A DNA stretch of 64,000 nucleotides from Acidobacteriota bacterium (GCA_012719455.1 JAAYAJ010000022.1:21713-85712); one strand, 5' to 3'. Shown: positions 5,773 through 29,006, numbered from the stretch's first letter. A program made the numbers and translations. Notes: a model not told the origin generated them from the letters alone.

Positions 5773-5792
5773 GCCGAAGGAAGGGGACCGGC

Positions 5793-16410: not shown

Positions 16411-17439
16411 TCAGTGCTCGATCGCCAGCAGGGCCGCTCCGACCGCGAGGCCGAAGAGCAGGCTGATCAGCTTGACCACGACGAAGGTTTTGCGCGAATG
16501 GGCCAGCAGCGGCAGCATTCCGTGGCCGTCCTGGACGATGGAGCTTGCCAGCAGCGTGCCGAAGGGCACCAGGCCCTGGGAGAACAGGGTCACGAAGATG
16601 AGGTGGGGGCCCGATTCCGGCACCAGCCCGATCAGGGCCGCAAGCGCCAGAACGATCCAGCGGTTCCCCTGGATCGCATCCCCGATCCGCCAGGAGTGCA
16701 CGATGAGGTTCATCAGGAGGAGGGCTCCGAACGTCCAGAGGAAGATGCGGGGCGCATGCTGGCGAACGACGTGCTTCCAGAGATGCTCCTCCAGAAAATG
16801 CTCGGGTACGGTTGCAACGATGAACAGCCCCACCCCCGAGGTCAGGAGCAGGGTCACCCGGATCCAGTTCCACTCTTCCGGCCCGATCTTTCCGAGGACG
16901 ACCAGGGACAGGAACCCGAGCAGGAGGAAGGAGAGGGTCCCCCGGGCGGGGGAGCATTTCTTCCACTCTGCGAGGAACCGGTCCGCGGAAAACATACTGC
17001 AGAGCTCCTCTTCGTGAAGCTGGAAGTCCTCCTGGCAGGAGAGGAACGTGGTGAGGCGCGGACCCGCCAAGGCATCCGTGAGGAGTCCCGCCGCTATCCC
17101 CAGCAGGAAAAGGGCTCCGTGCACCAGCAGGGCGGCGCGGGGAACCAGGGCGAACATTACGAAGGACTCGTCGCCACAGGTGGCGATCATCGCCGCCACC
17201 AGGCTTCCCATCGTCATGCGCCGGTGGGTGTACATGGCCACGACCGTAAACGCTCCCAGGCACCCGGGTGTGACCCCCAGCAGGGCCGCCAGCACGACCT
17301 GGCCGACCCGGTGCTCCGACAGCCGCTCCTGCCAGGCGCCCCGGCTGACCACGTTGACGTATTCGATGACCAGCATGATGATGGCCACGAATCCCGTGAT
17401 CAGCAGCGCGTGGCTCAATGCCGGGAAAACGTGTTGCAT
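16411..17439 (-). CDS. Polytopic integral membrane protein, unknown function (third gene of the feoAB operon)
   Basis: 342 aa with about 9-10 hydrophobic segments. Start ATG sits 35 nt after the feoB stop. Corresponds to the C-terminal part of the composite 812-aa ORF in the track. Confidence 0.5.
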   Translation of the reverse strand: MQHVFPALSHALLITGFVAIIMLVIEYVNVVSRGAWQERLSEHRVGQVVLAALLGVTPGCLGAFTVVAMYTHRRMTMGSLVAAMIATCGDESFVMFALVPRAALLVHGALFLLGIAAGLLTDALAGPRLTTFLSCQEDFQLHEEELCSMFSADRFLAEWKKCSPARGTLSFLLLGFLSLVVLGKIGPEEWNWIRVTLLLTSGVGLFIVATVPEHFLEEHLWKHVVRQHAPRIFLWTFGALLLMNLIVHSWRIGDAIQGNRWIVLALAALIGLVPESGPHLIFVTLFSQGLVPFGTLLASSIVQDGHGMLPLLAHSRKTFVVVKLISLLFGLAVGAALLAIEH

Positions 17440-17474
17440 TCCGCCCTTTCTTTCCGCCCGTCCCCGGGCTCGGT

Positions 17475-19184
17475 TCAGTCGAACAGGAGATTCAAGATCC
17501 CGCCCGTCACCAGGGTCGCCGCCAGCATGACGCCGGTCGACCTGGCAAGCCCCCGGGGACCGATCTCCTTCAATAACACCGCGAAAGTGGCGATGCAGGG
17601 GAAGAACATCGCCAGCACCACGCTCCCGACCACCAGCTGCCCCGCCGTCATGTCGAGGGGGGCCATCATCCCCAGGGCGACATCCTTCCGTAAAAAGCCC
17701 ACCGCCAGGGCGATGACCGCCTCCCGGGGCAGGCCCAGGACGGTGGTCACCACTGGGGCGCAGAAGTCGGCGACCGCGTCGAAAAGACCGAGGGATTGGA
17801 GGAGGTTGACCACGAGCACCGCCCCCAGCACCAGCGGGACGGCCTCCACGAAGAATCCCCGCACGCGCGTCCAGAGCTTCTGCGCGATCGCGCGCAGGGA
17901 AGGGAGCCGGTAGGGAGGGATCTCGATCAGCAACTCCGGGGTGAAGCCCCGCATCAGGCGGCGCAGGACGAACCCCAGGACCAGCCATACCAGGAGCAGC
18001 GTCGCGTAAACGAGGAGCACGTAGCGCCCTCCCCGCGCGCCGACCAGGCCGAAGATCATGGCCTGGAGCGAGGCGCACGGGATGGCGATGGAAATCAGCG
18101 TGGCCGCGATGAAACGCTCGCGCCGGCTTTCCAGGACCCGGGTGGCCATGATGCCGGGCACGTTGCAGCCGAAGCCGAGCATGGTGGGAATGATGGCGTA
18201 CCCGTGCAGGCCGATCCGGTGCATCAGCGTGTCGACCATCACGGCCAGGCGCGGCAGGTAGCCGGAGTCCTCGAGCAGCCCCAGGGCCAGGTAAAAGGAA
18301 AGGATATAGGGGAAAACCATGGCGATCGGGACGTAGAGCCCGCTGGTGAGTAGGCCAAAGGATTCGACGAAGTTGATCGTCCCCCCGGTGATGTTTCCCA
18401 CCACGAGGTCGTGCAGCAGCCCGCCTCCCCCCAGCATCCGGCTGACGCGGAGGACTAAAGGAGCCCACACCCCTTGAAAAAGCGGGTTCATCACCCGGTC
18501 GATGAGCCCTTCGCTGGCATACCGGACCCCGATGAAGATCCCGGCCAGCACCGCGACGGCGATGAGGCCCCCGGACACCGGGCGGAGACTCGCATCGGCC
18601 AGCCGCTCCTTCCAGGTGTGGTGGCGATGGGAAACCTTCTGCACGCGCCCGACGATGTCCCCAACGGCCATCCAGCGTTCGCTCGTCGTGCGCGCGGGGT
18701 GGCGGGGGGCCGCCGCGCGCGGCAGGGCCTCGACCAGCTGCTTCATCCCCTCGCCGGAGACCGCCACCGTGGGAATGACGGGGACCCGCAGCGCCGCTTC
18801 CAGCTTTTCCAGGTCGATGAGGATCCCGTGGTGCCGGGCATCGTCCCACACGTTGAGCGCCACCACCATCGGAGTGTCGCGCTCCAACAGCTGCAGCGTC
18901 AGGTAAAGATTGCGTTCGAGATTGGTGGCGTCCACCACGTTGATGATCCGGTCCCCCTGCCCGAGCATCTCCAGGGCGACCTTTTCCGCCTCGCAGGTCG
19001 GGTCCAGGGTGTAGGTTCCCGGCACGTCCGTGATCTCGACCTGTTCCGCCCCCAGCTTCATGAAGCCGTTGGTGTAGCTCACGGTGGAGCCGGGATAGTT
19101 CGAGGAGAGGACGTGGACCCCAGTGAGGCGCGAAAACACGACGCTCTTCCCCACGTTCGGGTTGCCCACCAGCAGGATCTTCAT
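17475..19184 (-). CDS. feoB: Ferrous iron transporter FeoB
   Basis: N-terminal G-protein domain MKILLVGNPNVGKS (G1) and DVPG (G3), followed by a large polytopic membrane domain. Start overlaps the feoA stop (ATGA). Confidence 0.85.
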   Translation of the reverse strand: MKILLVGNPNVGKSVVFSRLTGVHVLSSNYPGSTVSYTNGFMKLGAEQVEITDVPGTYTLDPTCEAEKVALEMLGQGDRIINVVDATNLERNLYLTLQLLERDTPMVVALNVWDDARHHGILIDLEKLEAALRVPVIPTVAVSGEGMKQLVEALPRAAAPRHPARTTSERWMAVGDIVGRVQKVSHRHHTWKERLADASLRPVSGGLIAVAVLAGIFIGVRYASEGLIDRVMNPLFQGVWAPLVLRVSRMLGGGGLLHDLVVGNITGGTINFVESFGLLTSGLYVPIAMVFPYILSFYLALGLLEDSGYLPRLAVMVDTLMHRIGLHGYAIIPTMLGFGCNVPGIMATRVLESRRERFIAATLISIAIPCASLQAMIFGLVGARGGRYVLLVYATLLLVWLVLGFVLRRLMRGFTPELLIEIPPYRLPSLRAIAQKLWTRVRGFFVEAVPLVLGAVLVVNLLQSLGLFDAVADFCAPVVTTVLGLPREAVIALAVGFLRKDVALGMMAPLDMTAGQLVVGSVVLAMFFPCIATFAVLLKEIGPRGLARSTGVMLAATLVTGGILNLLFD

Positions 19185-19402
19185 GGGGCGGTCTGTTCCG
19201 TTTTGGCGAAGATGCGGCTGGCCATTCCGAATCCCACGGCGATGGAGCAACCTTCGACCTCGATCACGGTGGGCCCCTTCATGAAGGCGGAGCTCACCTT
19301 CCTGATCTTCCTTCCCGGGCGGATCCCGAGGGCCTCCAGCCGGTCCTGCATCATCTGCTCCCCGTCCACGCGGACCACGACCCCCTGCTGCCCGTCAGCC
19401 AT
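19181..19402 (-). CDS. feoA: Ferrous iron transport protein FeoA
   Basis: 73 aa SH3-like FeoA sequence (MADGQQGVVVRV…GIRPGRKIRKV…IEVEG…IAVG). Translationally coupled to feoB. Confidence 0.75.
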   Translation of the reverse strand: MADGQQGVVVRVDGEQMMQDRLEALGIRPGRKIRKVSSAFMKGPTVIEVEGCSIAVGFGMASRIFAKTEQTAP

Positions 19403-19630
19403 CTCGGCCGCAGTCACCAGATCCCCCTCCTGCATACACCCTCTCCTTTGCCATCCGACTTTGCGCCCCCCGCGCACCGGCCGGCGCCCGCGTCGAGCGC
19501 TTCCACGGCTTGGAGGCAATCCTTCATGCCGGCGCTCCGCCTCCCGGTCATCGCCCCGCCGGATTGTTAGACGGACGAAGCATTTTCTCAGGTAACGGGC
19601 ATGAGTGCAACGGCGCCTTTCGGGGAATCG

Positions 19631-19655
19631 GCGCTCCCGGAATTTCCGGGAGCGC
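19631..19655. promoter_or_regulatory. Perfect 12-1-12 palindrome GCGCTCCCGGAA-T-TTCCGGGAGCGC, 230 nt upstream of feoA
   Basis: Read directly from the sequence. Located between the aminotransferase gene stop and the feoA start. Could be an operator or a terminator-like hairpin for the upstream operon (no T-run). Confidence 0.3.
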
Positions 19656-19742
19656 CGGGGCGGGCGGCAACCGGGCGACAGGGTCCCCGGGAGTTTGGGA
19701 AAGGGCAGGACGATTGTCCCCCCAATCGCCGCGATGCGGAGG

Positions 19743-20891
19743 TCAGCCCCGGAGGATGGCCCGCACCGCGGCGATCGCGGTTTTGACCTCCGCCGCATCC
19801 GTTCCGGCGCCGAGGGACATCCGGACCGTCCCCTCCGGAAAGGTGCCGATGGTACGGTGGGCGGCCGGGGCGCAGTGCAGCCCCACCCTGCAGAGGATGC
19901 CGAATTCGTCGTCGAGCCGGAGCCCGATTTCGGAAGGAGAGAGCCCCGCCGCGGTGAACGATACGACGGCGGTGCATTCCTCCGGGTTTTCCGGGCCGTA
20001 GACGGTGGCCCCCGCGATCTCCCGGATCCCGTCCGCGAGCGCGCGCCCTAGTTCGAGTTCGCGGGCGCGCAGGAGGTCGATGCCCCGGTCGAGGACCCAG
20101 CGGATGCCGGCGCCGAGGCCGGCGATCCCGGGGCCATTGAGGGTGCCGCTCTCGAATTTGTCCGGGAAGTCCTCCGGCTGGACTTCGTGTTCGGAGCGGC
20201 TGCCCGTCCCGCCGCGCACCAGCGGTGTCATCTCCGCGGCGGAGGCCCGGTCCCCCAGGACCAGCCCGCCGGTGCCGGGCGGTCCCTGCAGCCCCTTGTG
20301 CCCGGTGAACGCCAGCAGGTCGATGCCGGCCGACTGCATGTCGATGGGGATCACCCCCGCCGTCTGGGCGGCGTCCACCAGCAGGAGCGCGCCCGCCCTG
20401 TGCACGGCGCGGGCGACGTCGGAGACCGGCAGGATCGTGCCCGTCACGTTGCTCGCGTGCGTCATCACGACCAGGCGGGTCGAGGGGCCGATCTCGGCGG
20501 CGACGGCCCCGGGGTCCAGGGTCCCGTTGCGGGCGCAGGGGACCACGGCCAGGCGCACTCCTCTTCCCTCGAGGTGGCGCAAAGGGCGCATGACCGCGTT
20601 ATGTTCCATGCCGGTGGCCACCACGTGGTCCCCGGGCTTGAGGAGCCCCGAGAGGGCGAGGTTGATCGCCTGGGTGGCGTTCGGGGTGAAGATCACCCGC
20701 AGCGGGTCGGGAGCGTTGAAAAGTGCGGCGACCGTCTCGCGCGTGTCGTAGACGATGCGGCCGGCTGCGAGCGACAGCCTGTGCCCGGAACGGCCGGGAT
20801 TCCCCCCGGCCCGCTCCAGGAAGTCAGCCATGGCCCGGAGCACCTCGGGCGGCTTGGGCCACGAGGTCGCGGCGTGATCCAGGTAGATCAT
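19743..20891 (-). CDS. NifS/CsdA-like class V aminotransferase (cysteine desulfurase family)
   Basis: 382 aa. PLP-lysine context FTGHKGLQGPPGTGGL. Typical N-terminus IYLDHAAT. Confidence 0.8.
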   Translation of the reverse strand: MIYLDHAATSWPKPPEVLRAMADFLERAGGNPGRSGHRLSLAAGRIVYDTRETVAALFNAPDPLRVIFTPNATQAINLALSGLLKPGDHVVATGMEHNAVMRPLRHLEGRGVRLAVVPCARNGTLDPGAVAAEIGPSTRLVVMTHASNVTGTILPVSDVARAVHRAGALLLVDAAQTAGVIPIDMQSAGIDLLAFTGHKGLQGPPGTGGLVLGDRASAAEMTPLVRGGTGSRSEHEVQPEDFPDKFESGTLNGPGIAGLGAGIRWVLDRGIDLLRARELELGRALADGIREIAGATVYGPENPEECTAVVSFTAAGLSPSEIGLRLDDEFGILCRVGLHCAPAAHRTIGTFPEGTVRMSLGAGTDAAEVKTAIAAVRAILRG

Positions 20892-20952
20892 AGCTTGTCC
20901 CTGCCCACCTACTTAATAACAACGAAAACGTCCGCGCGCAAACATTACCGCC

Positions 20953-22323
20953 TCATTCGGCGAATGTGAAGGGGGTTCCCCGGGCGGGGACTCTTCCGGC
21001 GGAGGCCTTTCTGCGGTCCGCGATGCGGCGCTTTGCCGTTCCCGTCGTGAAGAAAGGAACGTTTCCACGGACAATCTCGAGATCCAACCGGTTGCGGCGG
21101 ATCAGCCGGTCCAGGGGCTCGATGGTGCGCACCCGGGCCGCCCAGCGCGCGGTATCGGCCGGTTCCCGGACGGGATGGACGGTCAGGCGCAGCAGGTCGC
21201 GCTCCGCCCCGGTTTCCAGTTCTGCGGAAAAGGCCGACACGCCGGGATCGCCGAGCAAGGCATCGTCCAGGTCGGCCATGGACAGGGACTGCCCGTCCTC
21301 GAGCTTCACTGCCTCGTGCATGCGGCCCCGGACGCGGTCGAGCCTTTTCGAGGAGGACCCGCAGGGACACGGTCCGGGAAGGATCCGCGCAAGGTCGCCG
21401 GTCCGGTACCGGATCAGGGGCATGGCACGGTGCGTCAGGGTGGAAAAAACCACCTCGCCGAATTCTCCATCCTTGACGGGGGCCCCGGTGCCGGGGTCGA
21501 CGATTTCGAAGAGGAGATCGGGCTCCCGCATGTGGTAGCCGGCACGGGCCCGGCACTCGACGGCGCCCCCCAGGCCCATCTCGGTCATGCCATAGTGGCC
21601 GTACACCCGGCAATGCCACGACGCTTCCAACGCGGATATGATCGCCGGTGCGACATAATCCGCGCTCAGCAGCACGCTCTTCAGCCGGACCGGCTTGGCG
21701 GGCACGCGCGATCGGGCGTATCTCGACAGCGCCAGGAGCTGGCAGGGAATCCCCACCACGCAGGAGGCCCGCGACCGGAAGAGCGTCTCCAGCGCCTGCC
21801 CGCATTCGGAGATCGGGCCGAAGATAGTGGCATCGGCGCCGAGCTTTGCGAGCGCCCTCCGGAGGAGGTCCCCGACGCTCCCCTCGGCGGCTCCCGGCAT
21901 GAAGACAACCACGCGATCCGTGCGGTCCGTGAAGGTCGACAATCCGTGATGGAAGAAGTCGACGGTCAGTTCCTGGTCCGCGGCGGTAAAGGCGATCCTC
22001 TTGGGTGGGGCGGTGGTGCCGGAGGTGGAGAGGGTGACGATCCGCTCCACCTCCCTCGGAGAAACGCAGAGGAGGTCGGCAAACCCGGCGGCGAGGTCGC
22101 CGGGGTAGGTGAAGGGGAGGCGCGCCACATCGGCGAGACTCCGGATGGAAGAGGGGTCGAGATGCGCGAGGCGGGCGCGGTAAAAGCGGCTATGCGTCCG
22201 CGCGTAACCCACCGTTTCCCTGATTCGCTCGAGCTGGTACCGCTCGGGCCCGGCTCCCGGAGGCATTCCGGATGCGTGCATCCGGCGGGCCATCCAGTCA
22301 TCGAGCGGCGTTACCTCCATCAT
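20953..22323 (-). CDS. Phenylacetate-CoA ligase (PaaK) / coenzyme F390 synthetase-like adenylate-forming enzyme
   Basis: 456 aa. AMP-binding core TSGTTAPPKR. PaaK-family length and C-terminal domain. Confidence 0.75.
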   Translation of the reverse strand: MMEVTPLDDWMARRMHASGMPPGAGPERYQLERIRETVGYARTHSRFYRARLAHLDPSSIRSLADVARLPFTYPGDLAAGFADLLCVSPREVERIVTLSTSGTTAPPKRIAFTAADQELTVDFFHHGLSTFTDRTDRVVVFMPGAAEGSVGDLLRRALAKLGADATIFGPISECGQALETLFRSRASCVVGIPCQLLALSRYARSRVPAKPVRLKSVLLSADYVAPAIISALEASWHCRVYGHYGMTEMGLGGAVECRARAGYHMREPDLLFEIVDPGTGAPVKDGEFGEVVFSTLTHRAMPLIRYRTGDLARILPGPCPCGSSSKRLDRVRGRMHEAVKLEDGQSLSMADLDDALLGDPGVSAFSAELETGAERDLLRLTVHPVREPADTARWAARVRTIEPLDRLIRRNRLDLEIVRGNVPFFTTGTAKRRIADRRKASAGRVPARGTPFTFAE

Positions 22324-22725
22324 TCACAGTTCGTGACCGAAGCCGGCCAGGAGTTCCCGGCATTTTCCCAGGGTCTCCGCCATCATCGCGAGGCAGCGTT
22401 CGTTCCGGCCCGGGGGGGTGTCGCCGAGAATATCCCGGCATTCGATCCCGCCGTAGGTGGGTTCGTAGGTCGACCGGAACCAAGACACCAGCGCCGGGAT
22501 CATCGAGGCCGCCGCGGCGTTTTTGTCGACCAGGGAGAGGAGGCAGGCGGCCCCCGTCAGGATGCCGCAGCAGAGGCCCGCATGGAGGCCGCCGCATAGC
22601 CCGGCGACGGCGTCGAGCAGGGCCTCGTTTTCCTCCTCCCCGGCATCCAGGCCCGCCTTGACCATGATCTGGCTGCAGCAGTATCCCCGGCCGGCCAGTG
22701 CGAAAACCTTGTCGCTGTCTTCCAT
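22324..22725 (-). CDS. C_GCAxxG_C_C family Cys-rich putative redox protein
   Basis: 133 aa with clustered cysteines (GYCCSQ…GLCGG…GLCCG…AACL…IECRD…ERC). Stop abuts the downstream ligase start. Confidence 0.6.
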   Translation of the reverse strand: MEDSDKVFALAGRGYCCSQIMVKAGLDAGEEENEALLDAVAGLCGGLHAGLCCGILTGAACLLSLVDKNAAAASMIPALVSWFRSTYEPTYGGIECRDILGDTPPGRNERCLAMMAETLGKCRELLAGFGHEL

Positions 22726-22733
22726 CGGTCCCT

Positions 22734-22940
22734 TCACTTGTCTTCCAGTTGCTGTTCCGTTTCCGCCATCTTCCCCTCGGCCATTTCCCGGGAGACAAAG
22801 ACCTTGCCGCAACCTGGGCAGGCTTCCACCTCGTGGGCTAGGGTAAGGCCCATGTAGGTGAAAATCGTTTTTTTCGCCACCAGCTCCCGGTCGCACCGGG
22901 CGCATCTCCAGATTTTCCTTCCTTCCCCCATCTCCTTCAT
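22734..22940 (-). CDS. Zinc-ribbon miniprotein (CxxC…CxxC), unknown function
   Basis: 68 aa with CARCDREL…CPGCGKVF. Overlaps the stop of the upstream flavo-FeS gene, suggesting translational coupling. Confidence 0.45.
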   Translation of the reverse strand: MKEMGEGRKIWRCARCDRELVAKKTIFTYMGLTLAHEVEACPGCGKVFVSREMAEGKMAETEQQLEDK

Positions 22941-25183
22941 TCCTCCCGGCCGAAACGCATCCGGTGGCTGTACGCATCGAGGATTTCATAGGCGCCTGCA
23001 CCCGAGCCGCGGTATTCGACCCAGTAGGTGATCACCTCCTTGACCATGCTGCACAAGGAGGCGCCGGTCTCCGGGTCGAGAAACTTGTCCCCGGCGGACT
23101 CCGCGCGCCAGATTGCTTCCTTGATATCATTCCCCGATATGAGCTTCCGGTCCAGGTTGCGCCGGAGCGCCTCGTCGATGACCAGGGTCAGGGCGTCCCA
23201 CTCCCGTGCTTCGGGCTCGAAATCGGCGCCTGTCATCTTTTTCATCAGCTCCTTCTTGACCGCCAGGATGTTGGCCCGCTTTTCGTCGAGGCCCGGGACG
23301 GGGTCCCGGGCCGGCAGGTCGAAGGCCAGGTCCAGGATATGGGCGCACTCCTTCCCCTGGGAGGCGAAAACCTCCCTGCAGTTGGCGCAGTAGACGACAT
23401 AGGGCCTCGGGTCGGCTTCCGTGCGGTTTTGGACGATTTCCCCGTACAGCCCGGGGTTGGCCAGGTAGATATGTCCCCCATGGCCGCAGCAGCGGTTCTT
23501 TTCCCCGGGTTCGACACACACGGTGCCCGACCGGGAGACGAGGGCGCGCACGGCCGCTTCCATCCGGTCCCCGCCCCGCGCGGCGCAGGGATCGAAGACG
23601 GCGGCTTCGGGCCATCGGCGTACGGGGCGCACCTCTTCCGCATCGGCCAGCAGCTCGTAGAGCGAGACGGTCCGGATTTCGGGAAGAAACCCGGCCAGGA
23701 CGGTCCGGCAGGTGGCGCAGGCGCACACGAGCACCGGCCGCCCCATTCCGGCCCAGGTCCGCCGGATCCCCTCGATGTTGGCGCGCAGGCGTTCCTCGTC
23801 CCCGGCCCAGTAGGCGGGGGCGCCGCAACACCCAAGCATCACCCCCGCATCATGGCGCGCGGCCAGGAAATCCCACGAACGGAGCACGTGCCCGGGGTTC
23901 GAAGCCCCCAGCTGGCAGCCGGGGTAAAAGGCGTAGGCGCATGCCTCCTGTCCCGCGGGCGGGGAGGAGAAGGCTCCTTCGGAAACGGCGAAATCCATTT
24001 CGCGCAGCCAGAAATCGTGCAGAGCCGCCGGATGTACTCCCGCGCTTAGGCGCACGCGGCGCGACAGTTGCATGAGCGGCCCGATGTCCACCCCCACGGG
24101 GCAAACGCCGCCGCAATAACCGCAGACGTTGCAGGAGTAGACCTGGCGGGTGATGGTGTGGCTGGAAAAGGGGGCGTTGACATGGGTGTCGGTGTAGACC
24201 TCCACCGCGATCTTGTGCGGGTCCTTGCGGAAGAGCCGGAGCATCTCGCACGCTTCCATGCAGATGTTGCAGTCGCACTGCATGCAGCGCGCGGCCTCCG
24301 CCCGGGCCTCCTCCCCGCTGTAGCCCGAGGGGTCGGCCGGCCGGACGGCCGGGGCGGGCGGCACCCCCTCGTGGGGCAGGATGTGCCCGCGGTACTCCCG
24401 GGGAAAGCGGCCGAAGGTGGCGGCCGCCTTGCCGGTCTGGAGAAAGACTTCGATCGACAGCGACGCCTCCCTGCCGGCGGCGAGCGCCTCCATCACGGAG
24501 GATCCGCACAGCTCCCCCCCGAGAAACACCCGCGGTTGTTCCGTAGAGTAAAGTTGGTCGTCCCAGGAAGCCTCGAGCCCGAAAGCGTTCCCCCCGGCGC
24601 CCGTGGCAATGTAAACCGCGTCGAATTCCGACAGCTGCGCGAGGTCGGAAACCACCGTCCCGAAGCGAAATTCCACCTCGAGCGCTGAAAACTGCAGTCC
24701 GATATCCTCGTCGAATTCCGTGAAACGCGGGTGCTCCAGGAGCCGGCCGCCCCACCCCTTTTCCCTTTCAAGGACGGTGACTCCGAATCTTTTCTGGGCG
24801 AGGGCTAAGGCGCATGAGAGGCCCGAGGGGCCGGCCCCCACGACGGCGACCCGCTCCTTCTTCGGGGGGATGACGTAGCGTTCGGGCTTGCGTTCCTTCA
24901 CGTTCCGGAGGCAGGCGACTTCCAGTTCCCGGATTTCGAGGGCCTCGTCCCCGAGAAGAGTGCGCTGGCACGCCGACCGGCACGGCTGGTCGCAGAGGGC
25001 GCTGACGACGACGGGAAAGATGACGGCGTCGCGCAGCACCCGGTAAGCGGCCGGCCACCTGCCCCGGGCCACCCTGTCCAGGAAGGACCGGATGTCCATC
25101 CTGAACGGGCAGGCGAAGGAGCAGGTGGCCGGTTCCCCGCGGAAACACCGGTCAGTGTGTTGTCGGGCGTCCTCGGGCTTCAT
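22937..25183 (-). CDS. Multidomain flavo-iron-sulfur oxidoreductase: GltD/HdrA-like FAD-NAD(P) domain + 2x[4Fe-4S] ferredoxin + two HdrD-type CCG domains
   Basis: GxGxxG motif VAVVGAGPSGLSCALA. Ferredoxin motifs CMQCDCNICMEAC and CNVCGYCGGVCP. Two Cys-rich CCG-like regions (…GCQLG…GCCGAP… and …CAARGG…CCGHGG…). Confidence 0.8.
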   Translation of the reverse strand: MKPEDARQHTDRCFRGEPATCSFACPFRMDIRSFLDRVARGRWPAAYRVLRDAVIFPVVVSALCDQPCRSACQRTLLGDEALEIRELEVACLRNVKERKPERYVIPPKKERVAVVGAGPSGLSCALALAQKRFGVTVLEREKGWGGRLLEHPRFTEFDEDIGLQFSALEVEFRFGTVVSDLAQLSEFDAVYIATGAGGNAFGLEASWDDQLYSTEQPRVFLGGELCGSSVMEALAAGREASLSIEVFLQTGKAAATFGRFPREYRGHILPHEGVPPAPAVRPADPSGYSGEEARAEAARCMQCDCNICMEACEMLRLFRKDPHKIAVEVYTDTHVNAPFSSHTITRQVYSCNVCGYCGGVCPVGVDIGPLMQLSRRVRLSAGVHPAALHDFWLREMDFAVSEGAFSSPPAGQEACAYAFYPGCQLGASNPGHVLRSWDFLAARHDAGVMLGCCGAPAYWAGDEERLRANIEGIRRTWAGMGRPVLVCACATCRTVLAGFLPEIRTVSLYELLADAEEVRPVRRWPEAAVFDPCAARGGDRMEAAVRALVSRSGTVCVEPGEKNRCCGHGGHIYLANPGLYGEIVQNRTEADPRPYVVYCANCREVFASQGKECAHILDLAFDLPARDPVPGLDEKRANILAVKKELMKKMTGADFEPEAREWDALTLVIDEALRRNLDRKLISGNDIKEAIWRAESAGDKFLDPETGASLCSMVKEVITYWVEYRGSGAGAYEILDAYSHRMRFGREE

Positions 25184-25197
25184 GGTGCAGCCGCCTT

Positions 25198-28029
25198 CTA
25201 CAAGGGGTTGGCGCGGATATCCTCCAGTTCATCCTCGAAGTCGGAGCCGAGGAAGTACTTCGGCGGGATCGGGTCCTCCCCCCGCTGCCTGGCCTCCCAG
25301 CCCGCCTTGACCTTGTCGGGGGTGGCGGGGAGGGAGTAGATGCGGACGCCGCAGGCGTTGCGGATGGCGTTGATGACGGCCATGTGGTTGCTGCTCTGGA
25401 AGACCTCGGAGCACCCACAGGATCCGTACGGCCCGGCCGGCCGCGGCGTTTCCATGAAGATGAGGTTGAAGTCGTCGGGGATCATGTCGATGGTGGGGAT
25501 GCCGCACCCAACCATGCTGCCGTGCTTGTCCTGGGCGTCGTAATCCTCGCTGAGGGCGAAGCCGATGCTGTGCGAGAGCCCTCCGTAGCCCTGCCCCTCG
25601 ACCGCCAGCCGGTTGCCGATGGCGCCGACGTCGGTGACGCAGGTGAATTTCAGTACCTGTGTCTTGCCGGTCTTGACGTCGACCTCGACCTGGGCGAGGT
25701 TGAGCCCGTACATATAGGTGGGGTTCTTTTCCCCTTCGCCGGTGTTGGGGTCGAGCCCCGGGGGGAGGCCGATGTTGAACTGGTCGTAGTGCCCGACATA
25801 TTTCGTCGGGATCCCTTCCGCCTTCATCTCCTCGTAGGTGCGCCAGGAGCCGTCCGGTTTGCGCATCGCATCCATCAGCTTGCCGGCGGCGTCGATGGTG
25901 GCGTTGCCCGCCATGTAGTGCGAGCGGCTGGCGGCGGCCAGTCCCGTGTCGGGGCAGGTCTTGCTGTCGTTCATGACCAACCGCACCTGGGCGGCGGTGA
26001 TTCCCAGCGGCTCGAGCGCTTTCACCGTGTGGGTCAGGGTGCCGATGTCCCCTCCCTGCCCCATGTCTTCCCAGGTGTTCCAGTGCGTGATCGTGCCGTC
26101 CGGGTTGAGTTCGAGGGCCACCTCGGCCGAATCGAACATGCCGATGGTGATGAGGAAGCCGCCCATGCTCAGCCCGACCCCCACGTGCCGGCCCTCGGCC
26201 CGCGCGGCTTCGGCTTCAGCCTTGTAGCTGTCGTAGAGCGGCTTGATCTTCTCGAGCATGGCGGGATAGACGTAGTCGTGGTAGGGGCGGCTGTTGACGG
26301 TGAGGTCCCCGGGCCGCGCCGCGTTCCTGTAGCGGAACTCCCAGGGGTCGATCCCGGCCTTTTCCGCCAGCATATCGATGAGGGCCTCGGTGGTGGTGTA
26401 AACCTGCGGTGAACCGAAGCCGCGGTAGGCGGTGTTGAAGGCGTGGTTGGACGAGCCGCCGCGGGCCAGGGCCTTGAAGTTGGGGATGTTGTAGCCGTGG
26501 AAGCCGACCGAGACCAGGTTGTTGAAGATGTTGCCGGCGACGACGGCGTAGGCGCCGTGGTCGAGGGCGATGTCGTACTCGGCCGCCGTGATCTTCCCCT
26601 GCTTGTCGCAGGCGATGCGGCCGTTGGCGAAGGTGGCCGACCGTTTGCCCGTCATGTGGTTGAATTCGTCGTAGCTCAGCGTCAGGGTGCAGGGGATGCC
26701 CAGGTTCTGCACCGCGGTGGCGACCAGGGCGAAGGTGTTCGAACTGGTGGAGTAGCCGAAGGAGCCGCCGACGTGATTGAGCACCATCCGGAGCTTTTCC
26801 ATGGGGATGCCGCAGGCCATGGAGACCACTTCCCGGGATTCGGTGATCGACTGGGATTTGCACTGGATCGTCAGCATGCCGTCGACGCCCCAGTATCCCT
26901 GAACGACGTCGGGCTCGATGGGCAGGTGCGGCTCGTGCTGCGAATGGAAACTTCCCTCGGCGACGAAGGCGGCCTCCTCGAACACTTCGGCTGTGTCTCT
27001 CCCCTTGAAGACCGGCTGCAACATGTAGAAGTTGGGCAGGCTCTCGTGGAGCTGGATGGCGTTGGGCATCGCCGCCTCGGGAAAGGTCATGTAGGCGGGG
27101 AGGATTTCCAGGTTCTGCTTCACCTTTTTGGCCGCTGCGCGGGCGTGCTCCTCGGTGTCGGCCGCCACCAGGGCTACCACGTCGCCGCGCCGGCTGATCT
27201 TGGTGCCGGCGATGACGGGGAAGTCGGTCACCCCTTTCCCTTTCTGGCGCGGGATCACGGCGGGGGAGGCCATGTTGTTGGTTCCCTTGACATCCTCGGC
27301 TTTCATGATCTTGAACACTCCGGGCATCTTCTCGGCCTCTTCCGTGTCGATGCTCAGGATCTTCGCGTGGGGGACCGTGGAAATCACCACCGCCAGGTGG
27401 GCGGTCCCTTCGGGCATCTTCAGCTTGATATCGTCGCCGTAATCGGCCAGGCCCGTCACCTTCACCAGGGCGGTCGGCCGGGGGCGGGCGGACCCGTAGA
27501 TATCCTTCTCTTCCGCGTCGGAGTAGGTGATGTCCTCCATGGAGCCCTCGCCCCGCACCACCGGGGCGGCGGCCATGACGGCATCGACGAGGGGCTTGTA
27601 CCCGGTGCAGCGGCAGACGTTGCGGTGTTTGCGGAACCACTCGCGCACCTCCTCCCGGGTCGGGGAGGGGTTTTCCGAGAGCAATCCGTGGGCCGAAACG
27701 ATGAAACCGGGGGAGCAGAAGCCGCACTGCACGCCGCCGTATGTGATCCACGCCTGCTGCAACGGGTGCAGGTGCTGCGGGGTGCCGATCCCCTCGATAG
27801 TGAGGATTTCGCTCCCCTCAGGCACGTTCTTCATCTTCCGGGTGCAGGAGCGGATGACCTTGCCGCCCAGGAGCACGGAACAGGCGCCGCACTGGCCGGT
27901 GCCGCACCCGATCTTGGTGCCCGTGAGCCCCATGCGGCGGATGACCGCGGCGAGATTGTCTTTTTCGGGATCGCAAACCACGGCTCTTTCCACGCCGTTG
28001 ATCATCAGGGTCATTCGCGTCAGTTTCAT
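25198..28029 (-). CDS. Molybdenum aldehyde oxidoreductase (xanthine-oxidase family, MOP-like single polypeptide with N-terminal 2x[2Fe-2S], no FAD domain)
   Basis: 943 aa from MKLTRMTLMINGV. Plant-type ferredoxin motif CGTGQCGACSV plus second cluster motif QCGFCSPGF…CRCTGY. Large Moco-binding domains. The ORF track's 78-aa N-terminal extension was rejected. Confidence 0.85.
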   Translation of the reverse strand: MKLTRMTLMINGVERAVVCDPEKDNLAAVIRRMGLTGTKIGCGTGQCGACSVLLGGKVIRSCTRKMKNVPEGSEILTIEGIGTPQHLHPLQQAWITYGGVQCGFCSPGFIVSAHGLLSENPSPTREEVREWFRKHRNVCRCTGYKPLVDAVMAAAPVVRGEGSMEDITYSDAEEKDIYGSARPRPTALVKVTGLADYGDDIKLKMPEGTAHLAVVISTVPHAKILSIDTEEAEKMPGVFKIMKAEDVKGTNNMASPAVIPRQKGKGVTDFPVIAGTKISRRGDVVALVAADTEEHARAAAKKVKQNLEILPAYMTFPEAAMPNAIQLHESLPNFYMLQPVFKGRDTAEVFEEAAFVAEGSFHSQHEPHLPIEPDVVQGYWGVDGMLTIQCKSQSITESREVVSMACGIPMEKLRMVLNHVGGSFGYSTSSNTFALVATAVQNLGIPCTLTLSYDEFNHMTGKRSATFANGRIACDKQGKITAAEYDIALDHGAYAVVAGNIFNNLVSVGFHGYNIPNFKALARGGSSNHAFNTAYRGFGSPQVYTTTEALIDMLAEKAGIDPWEFRYRNAARPGDLTVNSRPYHDYVYPAMLEKIKPLYDSYKAEAEAARAEGRHVGVGLSMGGFLITIGMFDSAEVALELNPDGTITHWNTWEDMGQGGDIGTLTHTVKALEPLGITAAQVRLVMNDSKTCPDTGLAAASRSHYMAGNATIDAAGKLMDAMRKPDGSWRTYEEMKAEGIPTKYVGHYDQFNIGLPPGLDPNTGEGEKNPTYMYGLNLAQVEVDVKTGKTQVLKFTCVTDVGAIGNRLAVEGQGYGGLSHSIGFALSEDYDAQDKHGSMVGCGIPTIDMIPDDFNLIFMETPRPAGPYGSCGCSEVFQSSNHMAVINAIRNACGVRIYSLPATPDKVKAGWEARQRGEDPIPPKYFLGSDFEDELEDIRANPL

Positions 28030-28251
28030 GGCTTCATCCTCGTTGTTGTCAATGGAAGGGTAAATTCTTATTTGTGGCCGGCGGCACACTTGCGCATTTC
28101 TCCGGCACAACAAACTCCCCAATTGTACCCCAACAGCGAAAAAAAATGACAAGAAATCACGTAAGTGCACAAATGGATGGAGTCGGGTGCAGCGCCGCGC
28201 GCGGAATCGGGGCGGGCAGGCGCCGGGGGATGCTCCGAATGTGGGAGGAAT

Positions 28252-28328
28252 TGGTCGGGGCACCCAGATTTGAACTGGGGACCTCCTGCGCCCAAGGCAG
28301 GCGCGCTACCAGGCTACGCTATGCCCCG
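28252..28328 (-). tRNA. tRNA-Pro (anticodon UGG)
   Basis: The reverse complement folds as a canonical cloverleaf. Acceptor CGGGGCA/TGCCCCG. U8A9. Anticodon stem CCTGC/GCAGG with loop CUUGGGC (U33, anticodon UGG, G37). T-arm CCCAG-TTCAAAT-CTGGG. Discriminator A. Encoded CCA. Confidence 0.8.
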
Positions 28329-28376
28329 ACCTTGCGGCAAACAATCATTTTAGCGCAGTTCGCCCCGGTCCGCCAG

Positions 28377-29006
28377 TCAACAATTGCGGGCCGCGCGGGA
28401 GGGCGTGATGAGGGCGGCGAGGGTGTCGCTGGCAAGCAGGGCGCGGACGGCGCGGGCGCGGTGGCTGTGCCGGTTCTTCTCCGCTTCGTCCAGCTCGGCG
28501 AAGGTCTTGCCGAGCGCGGGGAAGAAAAAAACGGGGTCGTAACCGAAGCCCCGGGTTCCGCGGGCCTCGTCGATGATGATGCCTGAACAGGCGCCTTCGA
28601 CCTCGATCCGGGGTGACCCGGCATGGGACAGGGCCAGGGCGCACACGAAGCGCGCGCTGCGCGGGGCGCCGGGGAGTTGCCCCAGTTCCCTCAGCAGTTT
28701 GCGGACACGGTCGGAATCGCCGGCTTCCGGACCGGCGTAACGGGCGGAATGGATCCCCGGGCGGCCGCCCAGCGCGTCAACGACCAGGCCGGAATCATCG
28801 GCCAGGACGGGGAGCGGCAGCAGGCGGGAATAGCCTACGGACTTCAGGCGCGCGTTTTCCGCGAAGGTCTCCCCGTTCTCCTCGATCTCTTCGGTGACCC
28901 CCAGGTCGCCTAGGCTCAGGACCCGGCACCCGAGCGGTTCGAGGAGCGCCTGGAACTCACGCAGTTTTCCCGGGTTCCGGGTCGCCAGGACGAGGGCGGG
29001 CGTCAT
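28377..29006 (-). CDS. rdgB: dITP/XTP pyrophosphatase (Ham1/RdgB)
   Basis: 209 aa. Typical RdgB sequence (…[11 protein letters not shown]…FGYDPVF…). 4-nt overlap with rph. Confidence 0.85.

Follow-up and report, generated by a model that had tools for sequence, protein, structure and literature searches.

Among the described systems closest to the locus examined here are the molybdenum aldehyde oxidoreductases (AORs) MOP and MOD of Desulfovibrio. In vitro, D. gigas MOP passes electrons to flavodoxin, and its activity does not require a partner protein; MOP is also reported to need no sulfido ligand. Five curated NCBIfam families (NF045668, NF045663, NF045645, NF045669, and NF045666), named after D. 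vulgaris aor (DVU_1559) neighbors, have been built around exactly such a gene neighborhood. In Clostridium ljungdahlii, "CCG domain pair oxidoreductase complex" clusters have been described (Aklujkar et al. 2017; PMC5640608). Cluster #1, for which no ligase is given, was induced 2- to 7-fold on syngas or H2/CO2, with its genes co-regulated; cluster #2, which does contain a ligase, was not induced (PMC5640608). The authors proposed a membrane carrier as the acceptor of the CCG site, by analogy only (PMC5640608). A further related family is that of EF_2568, which has been called a probable selenocysteine lyase and is encoded next to selD.

Organization of the six-gene locus

We analyzed a 64-kb stretch of DNA from an Acidobacteriota bacterium (the window), in which positions 19743-28029 hold six minus-strand open reading frames between tRNA-Pro and feoAB. 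The spacings in transcription order are 14, -4, 8, 0, and 61 nt. A preliminary description had drawn six packed minus-strand genes with the same gaps and boundaries, and its coordinates and spacings agree with ours; both boundaries were found by annotation, as tRNA-Pro(tgg) (28252-28328, minus strand) and, downstream of the operon, FeoA (PF04023) and FeoB (TIGR00437). Its "seven-component arrangement" counts six genes. Pfam profiles also recovered the domains that it had named, i.e., an AOR without an FAD domain, CCG, C_GCAxxG_C_C, AMP-binding, and Aminotran_5. The operon is thereby confirmed as a real, tightly packed, AOR-centered redox cluster. Third-position GC was 0.83 to 0.91 in the four genes that encode 382 aa or more; the scan had an 80-aa length cutoff and took in these four large genes, with the two miniproteins left out. 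None of the operon's genes in the window contains an in-frame TGA. The untranslated leader (28030-28251, minus strand), read from tRNA-Pro to the AOR start, contains an AT-rich stretch and a GAGGA ribosome-binding site ahead of the AOR ATG. A promoter is presumed to lie in it, although a consensus promoter scan of the leader gave nothing above background; no Rfam element, Moco riboswitch included, was found there.

Genes 1 to 5 each score above the curated cutoff of their NCBIfam family. Gene 1 (25198-28029, minus strand, 943 aa) encodes the MOP-type AOR (NF045668, 1,159 bits; cutoff, 1,100), with the Pfam domains Fer2, Fer2_2, Ald_Xan_dh_C, and MoCoBD_1/2 and no FAD_binding_5 domain. It matches MOD (1DGJ) and MOP (1SIJ/1VLB) over its full length (864/853 bits), the catalytic Glu is aligned with that of MOD/MOP, and an acidic C-terminal tail of about 35 aa is conserved in the 40 homologs listed. 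Identity within the AOR clade is 65 to 86% across phyla. An assignment to 4-HBCR was rejected (279 bits; cutoff, 995).

Gene 2 (22937-25183, minus strand, 748 aa) encodes a flavo-FeS-CCG protein of the DVU_1558 family (NF045663, 669.5 bits; cutoff, 530). Its Pfam domains and motifs (Fer4_20, an FAD-type Rossmann motif, Fer4_17, and two CCG stretches) give the order GltD/NfnB-like FeS N terminus, FAD Rossmann, HdrC-like dicluster, two CCG motifs, and C-terminal alpha/beta domain; the N terminus had been called HdrA-like and is GltD/NfnB-like instead. The cluster cysteines and GxGxxG are all invariant in 62 sequences. In the PDB, residues 3-223 match NfnB/GltD/DPD and residues 349-622 match Mycobacterium smegmatis EtfD (9OJN). 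Homology to NfnB/GltD ends at about residue 200-223, and the AF2 model (pLDDT, 80) places only about 25 residues between ATGAGG and VFLGG. By alignment and model, the NAD(P)H-binding domain has been lost.

Gene 3 (22734-22940, minus strand, 68 aa) encodes a four-cysteine Zn-ribbon/rubredoxin-like miniprotein (DUF7479, PF24292) of the DVU_1557 family (NF045645, 75.3 bits; cutoff, 60). In the public annotation of a contig 99% identical to the window, the gene starts at the ATG at 22931 and encodes 65 aa, which turns the 4-nt overlap with gene 2 into a 5-nt gap. The motifs WxCxxC...CPxCG...LAEGRMAEVEEQLEDK-stop are near-invariant, and 77 Zn-ribbon homologs contain no in-frame TGA. Gene 4 (22324-22725, minus strand, 133 aa) belongs to the DVU_1555 family (Pfam C_GCAxxG_C_C) and has eight invariant cysteines; the protein probably binds Fe-S. 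Its stop abuts the start of gene 5 (0 nt), and such abutment is kept across phyla. No in-frame TGA occurs in 17 C_GCAxxG_C_C homologs.

Gene 5 (20953-22323, minus strand, 456 aa; Pfam AMP-binding) encodes a DVU_1553-family adenylate-forming ligase (NF045666, 451.4 bits; cutoff, 300) of the PaaK/F390-synthetase superfamily, in the long form with a C-terminal domain. In this ligase the P-loop, YGxTE, and TGD motifs are retained, as is a C-terminal domain resembling that of PaaK; the best PDB match is PaaK (4R1L, 137 bits). However, it falls far below the cutoffs of the PaaK equivalogs (TIGR02155, 125.6 versus 646 bits; second equivalog, 147 versus 700) and of F390 synthetase (66.4 versus 459). 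The concern that it might be a housekeeping PaaK is thereby removed.

Gene 6 (19743-20891, minus strand, 382 aa; Pfam Aminotran_5) encodes a class V PLP enzyme of the EF_2568/TIGR01977 family, i.e., a cysteine desulfurase or selenocysteine lyase (449.1 bits; cutoff, 377). It did not qualify as SclA (NF040779, 390.9 bits; cutoff, 525). The earlier label of a NifS-like enzyme holds, and the literature links this subfamily to molybdenum hydroxylases. No SelD, YqeB/YqeC, or sulfur-carrier gene was found in the 64-kb window.

Recurrence across genomes

The gene set is already cataloged and occurs in many anaerobes. The preliminary description did not recognize the combination, but the five NCBIfam families and Aklujkar et al. 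(2017) cover genes 1 to 5. Gene neighborhoods across genomes, which it had proposed as a check, are conserved far beyond chance. The flavoprotein is encoded in 195 species genomes, and the arrangement recurs in 80 fetched loci, with the AOR directly upstream on the same strand in most and the Zn-ribbon gene adjoining the flavoprotein gene in 77. Presence was counted in the 41 loci whose flanks were complete, which represent at least four phyla. The core trio is almost always adjacent (AOR, 39/41; flavo-FeS-CCG protein, 41/41; Zn-ribbon, 41/41). The Zn-ribbon also occurs as a C-terminal fusion on the flavoprotein (P0263, P0211, and seven fragments). Synteny of genes 1 to 5 spans Acidobacteriota, Actinomycetota, Bacillota, and Desulfatiglandales. 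Anatomy, family membership, synteny, and fusions are established.

The ligase is present in 31 of the 41 full loci and the C_GCAxxG_C_C protein in 12. Since the trio stands alone in 7 and the ligase is absent from 10, the accessory genes are not obligatory in cis. Most relatives carry a radical SAM protein (TrsS), a DVU_1556-type methyltransferase, XdhC, and a MocA-like transferase, none of which was found within the 64-kb window. The zinc ribbon found in the pterin-methylating radical SAM family is present in TrsS of these relatives. Of the 31 loci with the ligase, 29 also have TrsS or the methyltransferase, and within the 41 full loci XdhC and the MocA-like gene are present only where the ligase is. 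Methyltransferase-ligase fusions were found (L074 and L076), and several Firmicutes ligases are without the C-terminal domain, e.g., one of 356 aa (L019). The canonical two-step ANL ligase mechanism depends on this domain. Aldehyde-related neighbors in relatives include W-type AFOR homologs, an NAD-dependent aldehyde dehydrogenase, and glycyl-radical dehydratase/lyase-family enzymes.

The six-gene unit as first drawn is not the conserved unit, and gene 6 is a lineage-specific appendage. A class V match occurs in 4 of the 41 full loci, only one of them of the window's type, and only the closest relatives (L020 and L081) have the enzyme together with the system. The gene has the same orientation only in these two and L044, and its gap to the ligase gene is 61 nt in the window and about 400 nt in L020. 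In L044 an EF_2568-family enzyme lies beside a second xanthine oxidase (XO)-family enzyme, as do SufS/SufU-like pairs in L015-L017.

Proposed function and alternatives

On balance we favor, with some reserve, the view that the locus represents a pared-down version of a widespread, cataloged system comprising a three-part aldehyde dehydrogenase, an accessory module, and a recruited sulfur/selenium enzyme. We infer complex formation, the electron path, the acceptor, and the accessory roles. Genes 1 to 3 would form one enzyme, in which the AOR would convert aldehyde to acid at the Mo-pterin; family membership and the aldehyde-related neighbors in relatives point to this substrate class. Electrons would leave the AOR via two [2Fe-2S] clusters into the 748-aa partner, passing from the GltD-like FeS clusters to FAD, the HdrC-like dicluster, and the pair of HdrB/HdrD/EtfD-type CCG clusters. 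The putative acceptor at the CCG site would be a disulfide or a membrane quinone-like carrier, not NAD(P)+. The NAD(P)H coupling suggested earlier is unlikely because the corresponding domain is missing from gene 2. Since D. gigas MOP is active alone, the partner may be dispensable for catalysis. The Zn-ribbon would be a detachable C-terminal module of the flavoprotein.

Genes 4 and 5, translationally coupled, may be the remnant of a larger module to which relatives add TrsS, the methyltransferase, XdhC, and a MocA-like cytidylyltransferase. We think that this module serves in cofactor or active-site maturation or in making or processing a small molecule for the enzyme; for the ligase, we base a maturation role on guilt by association. 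Simple CoA activation of the acid product by the ligase is less likely. Gene 6 would be a sulfur/selenium-mobilizing enzyme recruited in this lineage. It occupies the position that XdhC has in other loci, and a plausible role is to provide Moco or Fe-S assembly with sulfur (or selenium). A role in Moco sulfuration is weakened by the report that MOP needs no sulfido ligand.

A catabolic pathway, in which the AOR makes an (aryl)acid and the PaaK-like ligase its CoA thioester for degradation, with the flavo-FeS protein as electron outlet, would agree with the superfamily, motifs, and C-terminal domain of the ligase, its frequency among the full loci, and the aldehyde-producing and -consuming enzymes near the locus in relatives. 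We nevertheless consider it rather unlikely. The ligase misses both PaaK equivalogs, beta-oxidation, ring-processing, and transporter genes are not conserved around it, and its occurrence follows that of the radical SAM, methyltransferase, XdhC, and MocA genes, not that of catabolic ones. The methyltransferase-ligase fusions and the ligases without a C-terminal domain weaken the aldehyde-to-acyl-CoA pathway further. It is very unlikely that the system runs in reverse, with the ligase activating a carboxylate and the Mo enzyme reducing the carboxylate or CoA ester with electrons delivered via the flavo-FeS protein. C. ljungdahlii cluster #1 was induced under reducing, gas-fed conditions, and XO-family reductases with extra Fe-S clusters exist, as the 4-HBCR match recalls; but the induced cluster is the one without a listed ligase, and the AOR is a full-length MOP homolog far below the 4-HBCR cutoff. 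The acid/aldehyde couple is, moreover, too negative for an FAD/CCG donor without activation.

The contiguity of genes 4, 5, and 6 in the window could also reflect a sulfur/selenium-transfer trio, in which the ligase activates a carboxylate, the class V enzyme gives persulfide or selenide, and the C_GCAxxG_C_C protein relays it, yielding a thio(seleno)carboxylate or a sulfurated or selenated Mo center. The EF_2568 family is tied to selD and selenium-dependent molybdenum hydroxylases, relatives of several of the system's components are selenoproteins by family name (TrsS, MbdU, and C-GCAxxG-C-C), and cysteine desulfurase-like genes recur beside XO-family enzymes. This reading is nonetheless improbable given the restriction of the class V gene to the nearest relatives, its variable distance from the ligase gene, the absence of SelD, YqeB/YqeC, and sulfur-carrier genes from the window, and the absence of in-frame TGA from the window genes and homologs surveyed. 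The thiocarboxylate systems known to us rely on E1-like (MoeB/ThiF) rather than PaaK-like enzymes. That unrelated genes lie together by coincidence is hardly credible for the locus as a whole and is already refuted for genes 1 to 5 by their synteny over four groups, the natural fusions, and the co-regulation in C. ljungdahlii cluster #1. Chance adjacency has some support for gene 6 alone, whose place next to the other genes is not kept outside the closest relatives and which the sole sizeable gap sets apart from the rest.

Comparison with known systems

Through the NCBIfam models (NF045663-NF045669 and NF045645), the window can be compared with D. vulgaris Hildenborough DVU_1551-DVU_1559. Genes 1 to 5 pass the AOR, DVU_1558-type, DVU_1557, DVU_1555, and DVU_1553 cutoffs, whereas the DVU_1556 methyltransferase, XdhC_rel_AOR, and the DVU_1551 NTP transferase are missing. 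The same five-gene order is found in C. ljungdahlii cluster #2 (PMC5640608), likened by annotations: MCD-type AOR, FAD/CCG-pair FeS oxidoreductase, four-cysteine protein, C_GCAxxG_C_C protein, and putative adenylyltransferase. Beyond these five genes, that cluster encodes an XdhC-like chaperone, a MocA+HD transferase, and a CobC-like phosphatase, and a sigma-54 regulator is present; all of these are absent from the window, which carries a class V PLP enzyme instead.

Gene 6 can be set beside XdhC/NifS4, the NifS domain of ABA3/HMCS, and Enterococcus faecalis EF_2568 (SclA), in that it meets the EF_2568 family model and lies next to an XO-family enzyme, at the spot held by XdhC in relatives. 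Unlike EF_2568, it is below the SclA cutoff, the window has no XdhC, SelD, or YqeB/YqeC, and its activity is only predicted. The ligase shares superfamily and overall length with PaaK and coenzyme F390 synthetase, and PaaK structures are its best PDB matches; however, both equivalog cutoffs are missed widely, no paa operon surrounds it, and some DVU_1553-family members have no C-terminal domain or are joined to a methyltransferase. The split-Soret cytochrome c of D. desulfuricans (1H21) has only the Cys-rich scaffold in common with the C_GCAxxG_C_C protein, from which the CxxCH heme motifs are missing. In 1H21 this scaffold holds a non-heme iron center.

The AOR shares both [2Fe-2S] motifs, the Moco domains, and the catalytic Glu with MOP and MOD (D. 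gigas and D. desulfuricans; 1VLB and 1DGJ), which likewise have no FAD domain. It differs in its conserved acidic tail, in some aligned pocket positions, and in being about 35 aa longer than the approximately 97-kDa Desulfovibrio enzymes; moreover, the acceptor of MOP in published work is flavodoxin, not a genomic neighbor's protein. HdrB/HdrD, GlpC, SdhE, and mycobacterial EtfD carry two CxnCCGxmCxxC motifs after a ferredoxin-like dicluster, as gene 2 does, and EtfD (9OJN) is similar to its CCG end in sequence and fold. In contrast to these proteins, gene 2 has no membrane or cytochrome b domain, its CCG part is fused to a GltD/NfnB-like FeS and FAD module, and it is paired with a Mo enzyme, with a disulfide or quinone as the putative acceptor.

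Gene layout and surroundings of the operon

Six open reading frames (ORFs) occupy positions 19743-28029, all on the minus strand, in a window with a G+C content of about 66%. In transcription order, they encode an aldehyde oxidoreductase (AOR; 25198-28029, 943 aa), a flavo-FeS-CCG protein (22937-25183, 748 aa), a four-cysteine Zn-ribbon miniprotein (22734-22940, 68 aa), a C_GCAxxG_C_C protein (22324-22725, 133 aa), an adenylate-forming enzyme, here called the ligase (20953-22323, 456 aa), and a class V PLP enzyme (19743-20891, 382 aa). The intergenic spacings from gene 1 to gene 6 are 14, -4, 8, 0, and 61 nt. The tight packing of six minus-strand genes reported in the preliminary description was confirmed, as were all of the domains named there and the lack of an FAD domain in the AOR (Pfam); the "seven-component" arrangement also mentioned there comprises six genes. 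An independent gene call on a public contig of 99% identity (L081, GCA_046128275.1) gave the same genes, the sole difference being a 65-aa miniprotein start. For the four genes that encode 382 aa or more, third-position GC was 0.83 to 0.91; the scan had an 80-aa length cutoff, which left out the two miniproteins.

The operon is placed between the dcw/RNase PH-RdgB region and feoAB, against tRNA-Pro. The tRNA gene (28252-28328) borders it on one side and FeoA and FeoB are encoded downstream, in agreement with the boundaries originally described. No integrase or composition shift was seen near tRNA-Pro and its flanks. Scans of 19000-28700 for promoter and terminator consensus sequences yielded no more matches than expected from shuffling, and an Rfam scan at gathering and E≤1 thresholds returned tRNA only, with no Moco riboswitch. 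The remaining genes of the window are housekeeping genes (dcw cluster, ribosomal proteins, PBP1C, a TonB receptor, and PEP-CTERM genes). On the plus strand, an ORF of 1893 aa (91-5772), strongly coding by its composition, lies directly upstream of the PBP1C gene (5439-7973), which it overlaps, and had no NCBIfam match at E≤1e-6. Directly downstream of feoB lies the gene for an arsenic-efflux-family permease (16411-17601, minus strand; NF037962, 143 bits), whose long ORF overlaps feoB in a different frame. A feoB frameshift, considered because of these two overlapping long ORFs, was rejected, as the FeoB match extends to the end of the profile and the other ORF encodes the permease as a separate protein.

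Distribution of the system across genomes

For the flavo-FeS-CCG protein, at least 853 homologues were retrieved at E<1e-20, and 195 GTDB species genomes encode it. Eighty loci were fetched from Acidobacteriota, Actinomycetota, Bacillota, and Desulfatiglandales, and in 77 of them its gene is followed by that of the four-Cys protein in the same order and strand as in the window. By tblastn over the 80 loci, the miniprotein was found in 77, the AOR in 67, the ligase in 50, the C_GCAxxG_C_C protein in 17, and the class V enzyme in 7. In at least four phyla, the AOR gene is adjoined by genes for a dedicated FAD/FeS/CCG protein and a four-cysteine module. The median identity was 78% for the AOR, 54% for the flavoprotein, and 49% for the ligase, and AOR identity exceeded that of its pair partner in 53/53 loci. 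The very high identity of the AOR across phyla could reflect past horizontal transfer. Together, the breadth of the dedicated partner and the unusual conservation of the AOR point to a defined multisubunit enzyme.

Loci flanked by 6 kb or more on each side, of which there were 41, were treated as full loci. The Zn-ribbon gene was present in 41/41 of these, the AOR gene in 39/41, the ligase gene in 31/41, and the C_GCAxxG_C_C gene in 12/41. TrsS was present in 27, the methyltransferase in 21, XdhC in 13, the MocA-like transferase in 11, and a DUF5714/MbdU-like protein in 7 of the 41. TrsS and/or the DVU_1556 methyltransferase occurred in 31/41, and the trio of AOR, flavoprotein, and Zn ribbon stood alone in 7/41. 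The commonest complete order was MocA-like, AOR, flavoprotein, Zn-ribbon, TrsS, methyltransferase, C_GCAxxG_C_C, ligase, XdhC, and FAD-dependent protein. TrsS (NF045646) and the DVU_1556 methyltransferase (NF045667) had no match anywhere in the window, nor was there any tblastn match there to XdhC_rel_AOR (NF045664) or the MocA-like DVU_1551 NTP transferase (NF045665). The latter two are optional, given their low frequencies in the full loci. The closest relative was an Acidobacteriota MAG (L020, 86 to 95% identity). A search with the C_GCAxxG_C_C protein returned mostly metagenome proteins, and the named matches were all labelled Acidobacteria.

The class V enzyme scored 449.1 bits against TIGR01977 (cutoff, 377). 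This is the family of E. faecalis EF_2568, a probable selenocysteine lyase encoded beside selD, so named in a study of selenium-dependent molybdenum hydroxylases (Haft & Self 2008, PMC2276186). Neither SelD nor YqeB/YqeC was found among the window ORFs scanned against NCBIfam, a set from which a few dcw-cluster ORFs were left out. A class V gene was present in 4/41 full loci; three of the products were 28 to 34% identical and encoded on the opposite strand, and the fourth (L044) was 43% identical and co-oriented. The NifS-like gene, initially counted as part of the unit, falls outside its conserved portion, since only L020 and L081 have a gene of the same type along with the system. In L044 (17746-21939), a TIGR01977-family gene follows a second XO-family enzyme, and in L015 to L017 (e.g., L016:1661-6252), a SufS-like/SufU-like (NifU_N) pair flanks such an enzyme. 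These second enzymes are MOP-related, about 885 to 915 aa long, and below the NF045668 cutoff; their location beside cysteine-desulfurase-like genes indicates that pairs of a Mo-hydroxylase and an S-mobilizing enzyme recur. From its family assignment and occurrence, gene 6 is read as a putative lineage-specific S/Se donor, and the window's own addition is only a reduced variant of the system with an S/Se-mobilizing enzyme.

The core proteins and the proposed path of electrons

MOP-type aldehyde oxidoreductases are textbook molybdoenzymes. To our knowledge, their physiological redox partner has been missing since the 1990s, with both acceptor and role unsettled. Flavodoxin has served as the acceptor of a MOP-type AOR in vitro. 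The window AOR combines two [2Fe-2S] domains and the Moco-binding domains in one chain, and Pfam found no FAD_binding_5 domain in it. The catalytic Glu is present in a residue-level alignment to 1DGJ (...GCSEVF... against ...GVGEMP...). The MocA-like cytidylyltransferases of related loci would agree, if indirectly, with a molybdopterin cytosine dinucleotide cofactor. At its C terminus (25198-25305), the protein carries an acidic tail of approximately 35 aa, GWEARQRGEDPIPPKYFLGSDFEDELEDIRANPL, which is conserved across phyla in the 943-aa clade but is absent from the crystallized 907-aa MOP and MOD. This tail may be a docking element.

The N terminus of gene 2 resembles the FeS and FAD part of NfnB, GltD, and DPD, with profile matches that stop at residues 197 to 223. 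In its AF2 model (pLDDT 80), residues 111 to 250 form the only Rossmann domain, and no more than about 25 residues stand where NfnB, GltD, and DPD insert the NAD(P)H domain, and NfnB aligns with gene 2 over 225 columns only. A second, NAD(P)H-binding Rossmann domain was thus absent by profile matches, model, and NfnB alignment, which disfavors the coupling to NAD(P)H initially proposed and makes NAD(P)+ unlikely as an acceptor. Pfam assigned Fer4_17 and two CCG stretches, and residues 349 to 622 correspond to the CCG region of M. smegmatis EtfD (9OJN). The dicluster cysteines are all invariant, as are the CCG cysteines (C423, C452/453, C489, C492, C533, C565/566, C599, and C602). As in heterodisulfide reductase-like CCG proteins, two CCG motifs follow a 2x[4Fe-4S] ferredoxin motif. 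Whole-chain Foldseek was dominated by the N-terminal module and gave no assignment for the C-terminal alpha/beta domain (630 to 742). The N-terminal homology, the model, the EtfD match, and the invariant cysteines indicate that the partner would supply the flavin missing from the AOR and has an HdrB/EtfD-type site at its end. A disulfide or a quinone could serve as the acceptor.

Natural fusions join the flavoprotein to the Zn ribbon. A phmmer search of 1.84 billion representatives with the miniprotein recovered complete DVU_1558-type proteins that carry the DVU_1557 module at their C terminus; long matches with many repeated stretches (22 to 26% identity) were left out as presumed unrelated zinc-finger repeats. 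One fusion of 835 aa (P0263) matches NF045663 at 2 to 756 and NF045645 at 778 to 835, and there are also a 944-aa protein (P0211) and seven junction-spanning fragments (P0238, P0191, P0198, P0213, P0170, P0241, and P0166). The linkers vary, and every fusion, like the stand-alone Zn ribbon, ends in LEDK. Within the miniprotein, WxCxxC...CPxCG and the C-terminal LAEGRMAEVEEQLEDK are near-invariant. The fusions, this invariance, and the conservation and tail of the AOR argue for physical association of the core proteins, and the sequence evidence points to the AOR, flavoprotein, and Zn ribbon as probable parts of one enzyme. Selenocysteine read-through in the small proteins was considered and rejected, as no in-frame TGA aligned with a cysteine in 77 Zn-ribbon and 17 C_GCAxxG_C_C homologues.

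Several neighbors of the system in other genomes are related to aldehydes. Homologues of W-type aldehyde:ferredoxin oxidoreductase, an NrfC-like FeS protein, and an NAD-dependent aldehyde dehydrogenase surround it in Acidobacteriota (L001:179-1894 and 17374-21898, L003, and L006), and a glycyl-radical dehydratase/lyase-family enzyme is encoded nearby in Oscillospiraceae (L038:2848-5298, L039, L067, and L075). Several characterized members of the latter family generate aldehydes. These neighbors fit an aldehyde-oxidizing role. Also adjoining the system in Acidobacteriota (L001:15774-16760, L004, L009, and L017) is an excisionase-type HTH fused to the periplasmic-binding-protein-like domain of MoeA-type "molybdopterin biosynthesis protein" models, which may be a molybdate/tungstate-responsive regulator.

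The accessory genes and comparison with known systems

The nearest solved relatives of the ligase are PaaK structures. It scored far below the cutoffs of the PaaK equivalogs (125.6 bits versus 646.3 for TIGR02155 and 147.2 versus 700 for NF041878), and no paa genes were found among the scanned window ORFs or in the related loci. Judged by these profiles, the ligase is not PaaK. The ligase occurs with TrsS or the methyltransferase in 29/31 loci, and no locus without it has an XdhC or MocA-like gene (41 full loci). In L074 (8035-9636) and L076 (5466-7268), one ORF combines a DVU_1556-like SAM methyltransferase domain with a DVU_1553 ligase of the short form, without a C-terminal domain. Several Firmicutes ligases also lack this domain; those of Anaerovoracaceae/Bacillota are 338 to 369 aa long (L019:5589-6659, L021, and L025), and no separate C-domain ORF follows them. 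In ANL enzymes, the canonical ligase mechanism depends on the C-terminal domain. TrsS, which according to a review's table was reportedly named by Haft and Tolstoy in 2025 in mSystems, shares its zinc ribbon with the pterin-methylating radical SAM family, and in all phyla the C_GCAxxG_C_C gene ends directly at the start of the ligase gene. By association, the co-occurrence, fusions, short forms, zinc ribbon, and abutting genes would together favor a module for maturation or small-molecule processing rather than simple activation of the product. The pathways suggested in the preliminary description are hypotheses.

We tentatively propose that MOP-type AORs may have the DVU_1558/DVU_1557 pair as their physiological redox partner, forming with it a Mo/[2Fe-2S]/[4Fe-4S]/FAD/CCG enzyme that would use aldehyde oxidation to reduce a disulfide or a membrane carrier. 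The ligase/C_GCAxxG_C_C module (with TrsS and the methyltransferase elsewhere) might make a tailored pterin cofactor for this enzyme, or else a new small-molecule ligand. The acceptor question is directly testable in the tractable hosts D. vulgaris and C. ljungdahlii, and the accessory module (PaaK-like, split-Soret-like Cys-rich, pterin-methylase-like radical SAM, and methyltransferase proteins) could reveal a new step in Mo-cofactor maturation. A literature search by D. vulgaris locus tags found no functional study of DVU1553-1558, and the gene context of MOP is given in neither the D. gigas genome paper nor the MOP history. The "Aor" of an RB-TnSeq paper was set aside as the tungsten enzyme DVU1179, and the AOR of Phylogenize2 was set aside as PaoABC.

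Genes 1 to 5 were scored against NCBIfam curated cutoffs, and all exceeded them: the AOR with 1159 bits versus 1100 (NF045668, molybdopterin-dependent aldehyde oxidoreductase), the flavo-FeS-CCG protein with 669.5 versus 530 (NF045663, "diclust_near_Sec"), the miniprotein with 75.3 versus 60 (NF045645, DVU_1557 family redox protein), the C_GCAxxG_C_C protein with 119.6 versus 103 (NF045669, DVU_1555 family), and the ligase with 451.4 versus 300 (NF045666, DVU_1553 family AMP-dependent CoA ligase). In D. vulgaris, DVU_1559 is Aor. C. ljungdahlii has two tandem sets of AOR, FAD/CCG-pair oxidoreductase, four-cysteine protein, and C_GCAxxG_C_C protein (Aklujkar et al. 2017, PMC5640608). Cluster #1, which also has a methyltransferase, a radical SAM enzyme, and an XdhC-like chaperone, was upregulated 2- to 7-fold on syngas or H2/CO2, and cluster #2 showed no induction (Table S4, PMC5640608). 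The order of cluster #2 is AOR, FAD/CCG, 4-Cys, C_GCAxxG_C_C, "adenylyltransferase, putative," XdhC-like, MocA+HD, and CobC-like (Table S4, PMC5640608). Like the window, it is without TrsS and the DVU_1556 methyltransferase (Table S4), and its gene order is that of window genes 1 to 5. The arrangement, which had not been recognized in the preliminary description, is therefore a real and conserved cluster already recognized in databases and the literature, and the window locus is a reduced member of this catalogued system.
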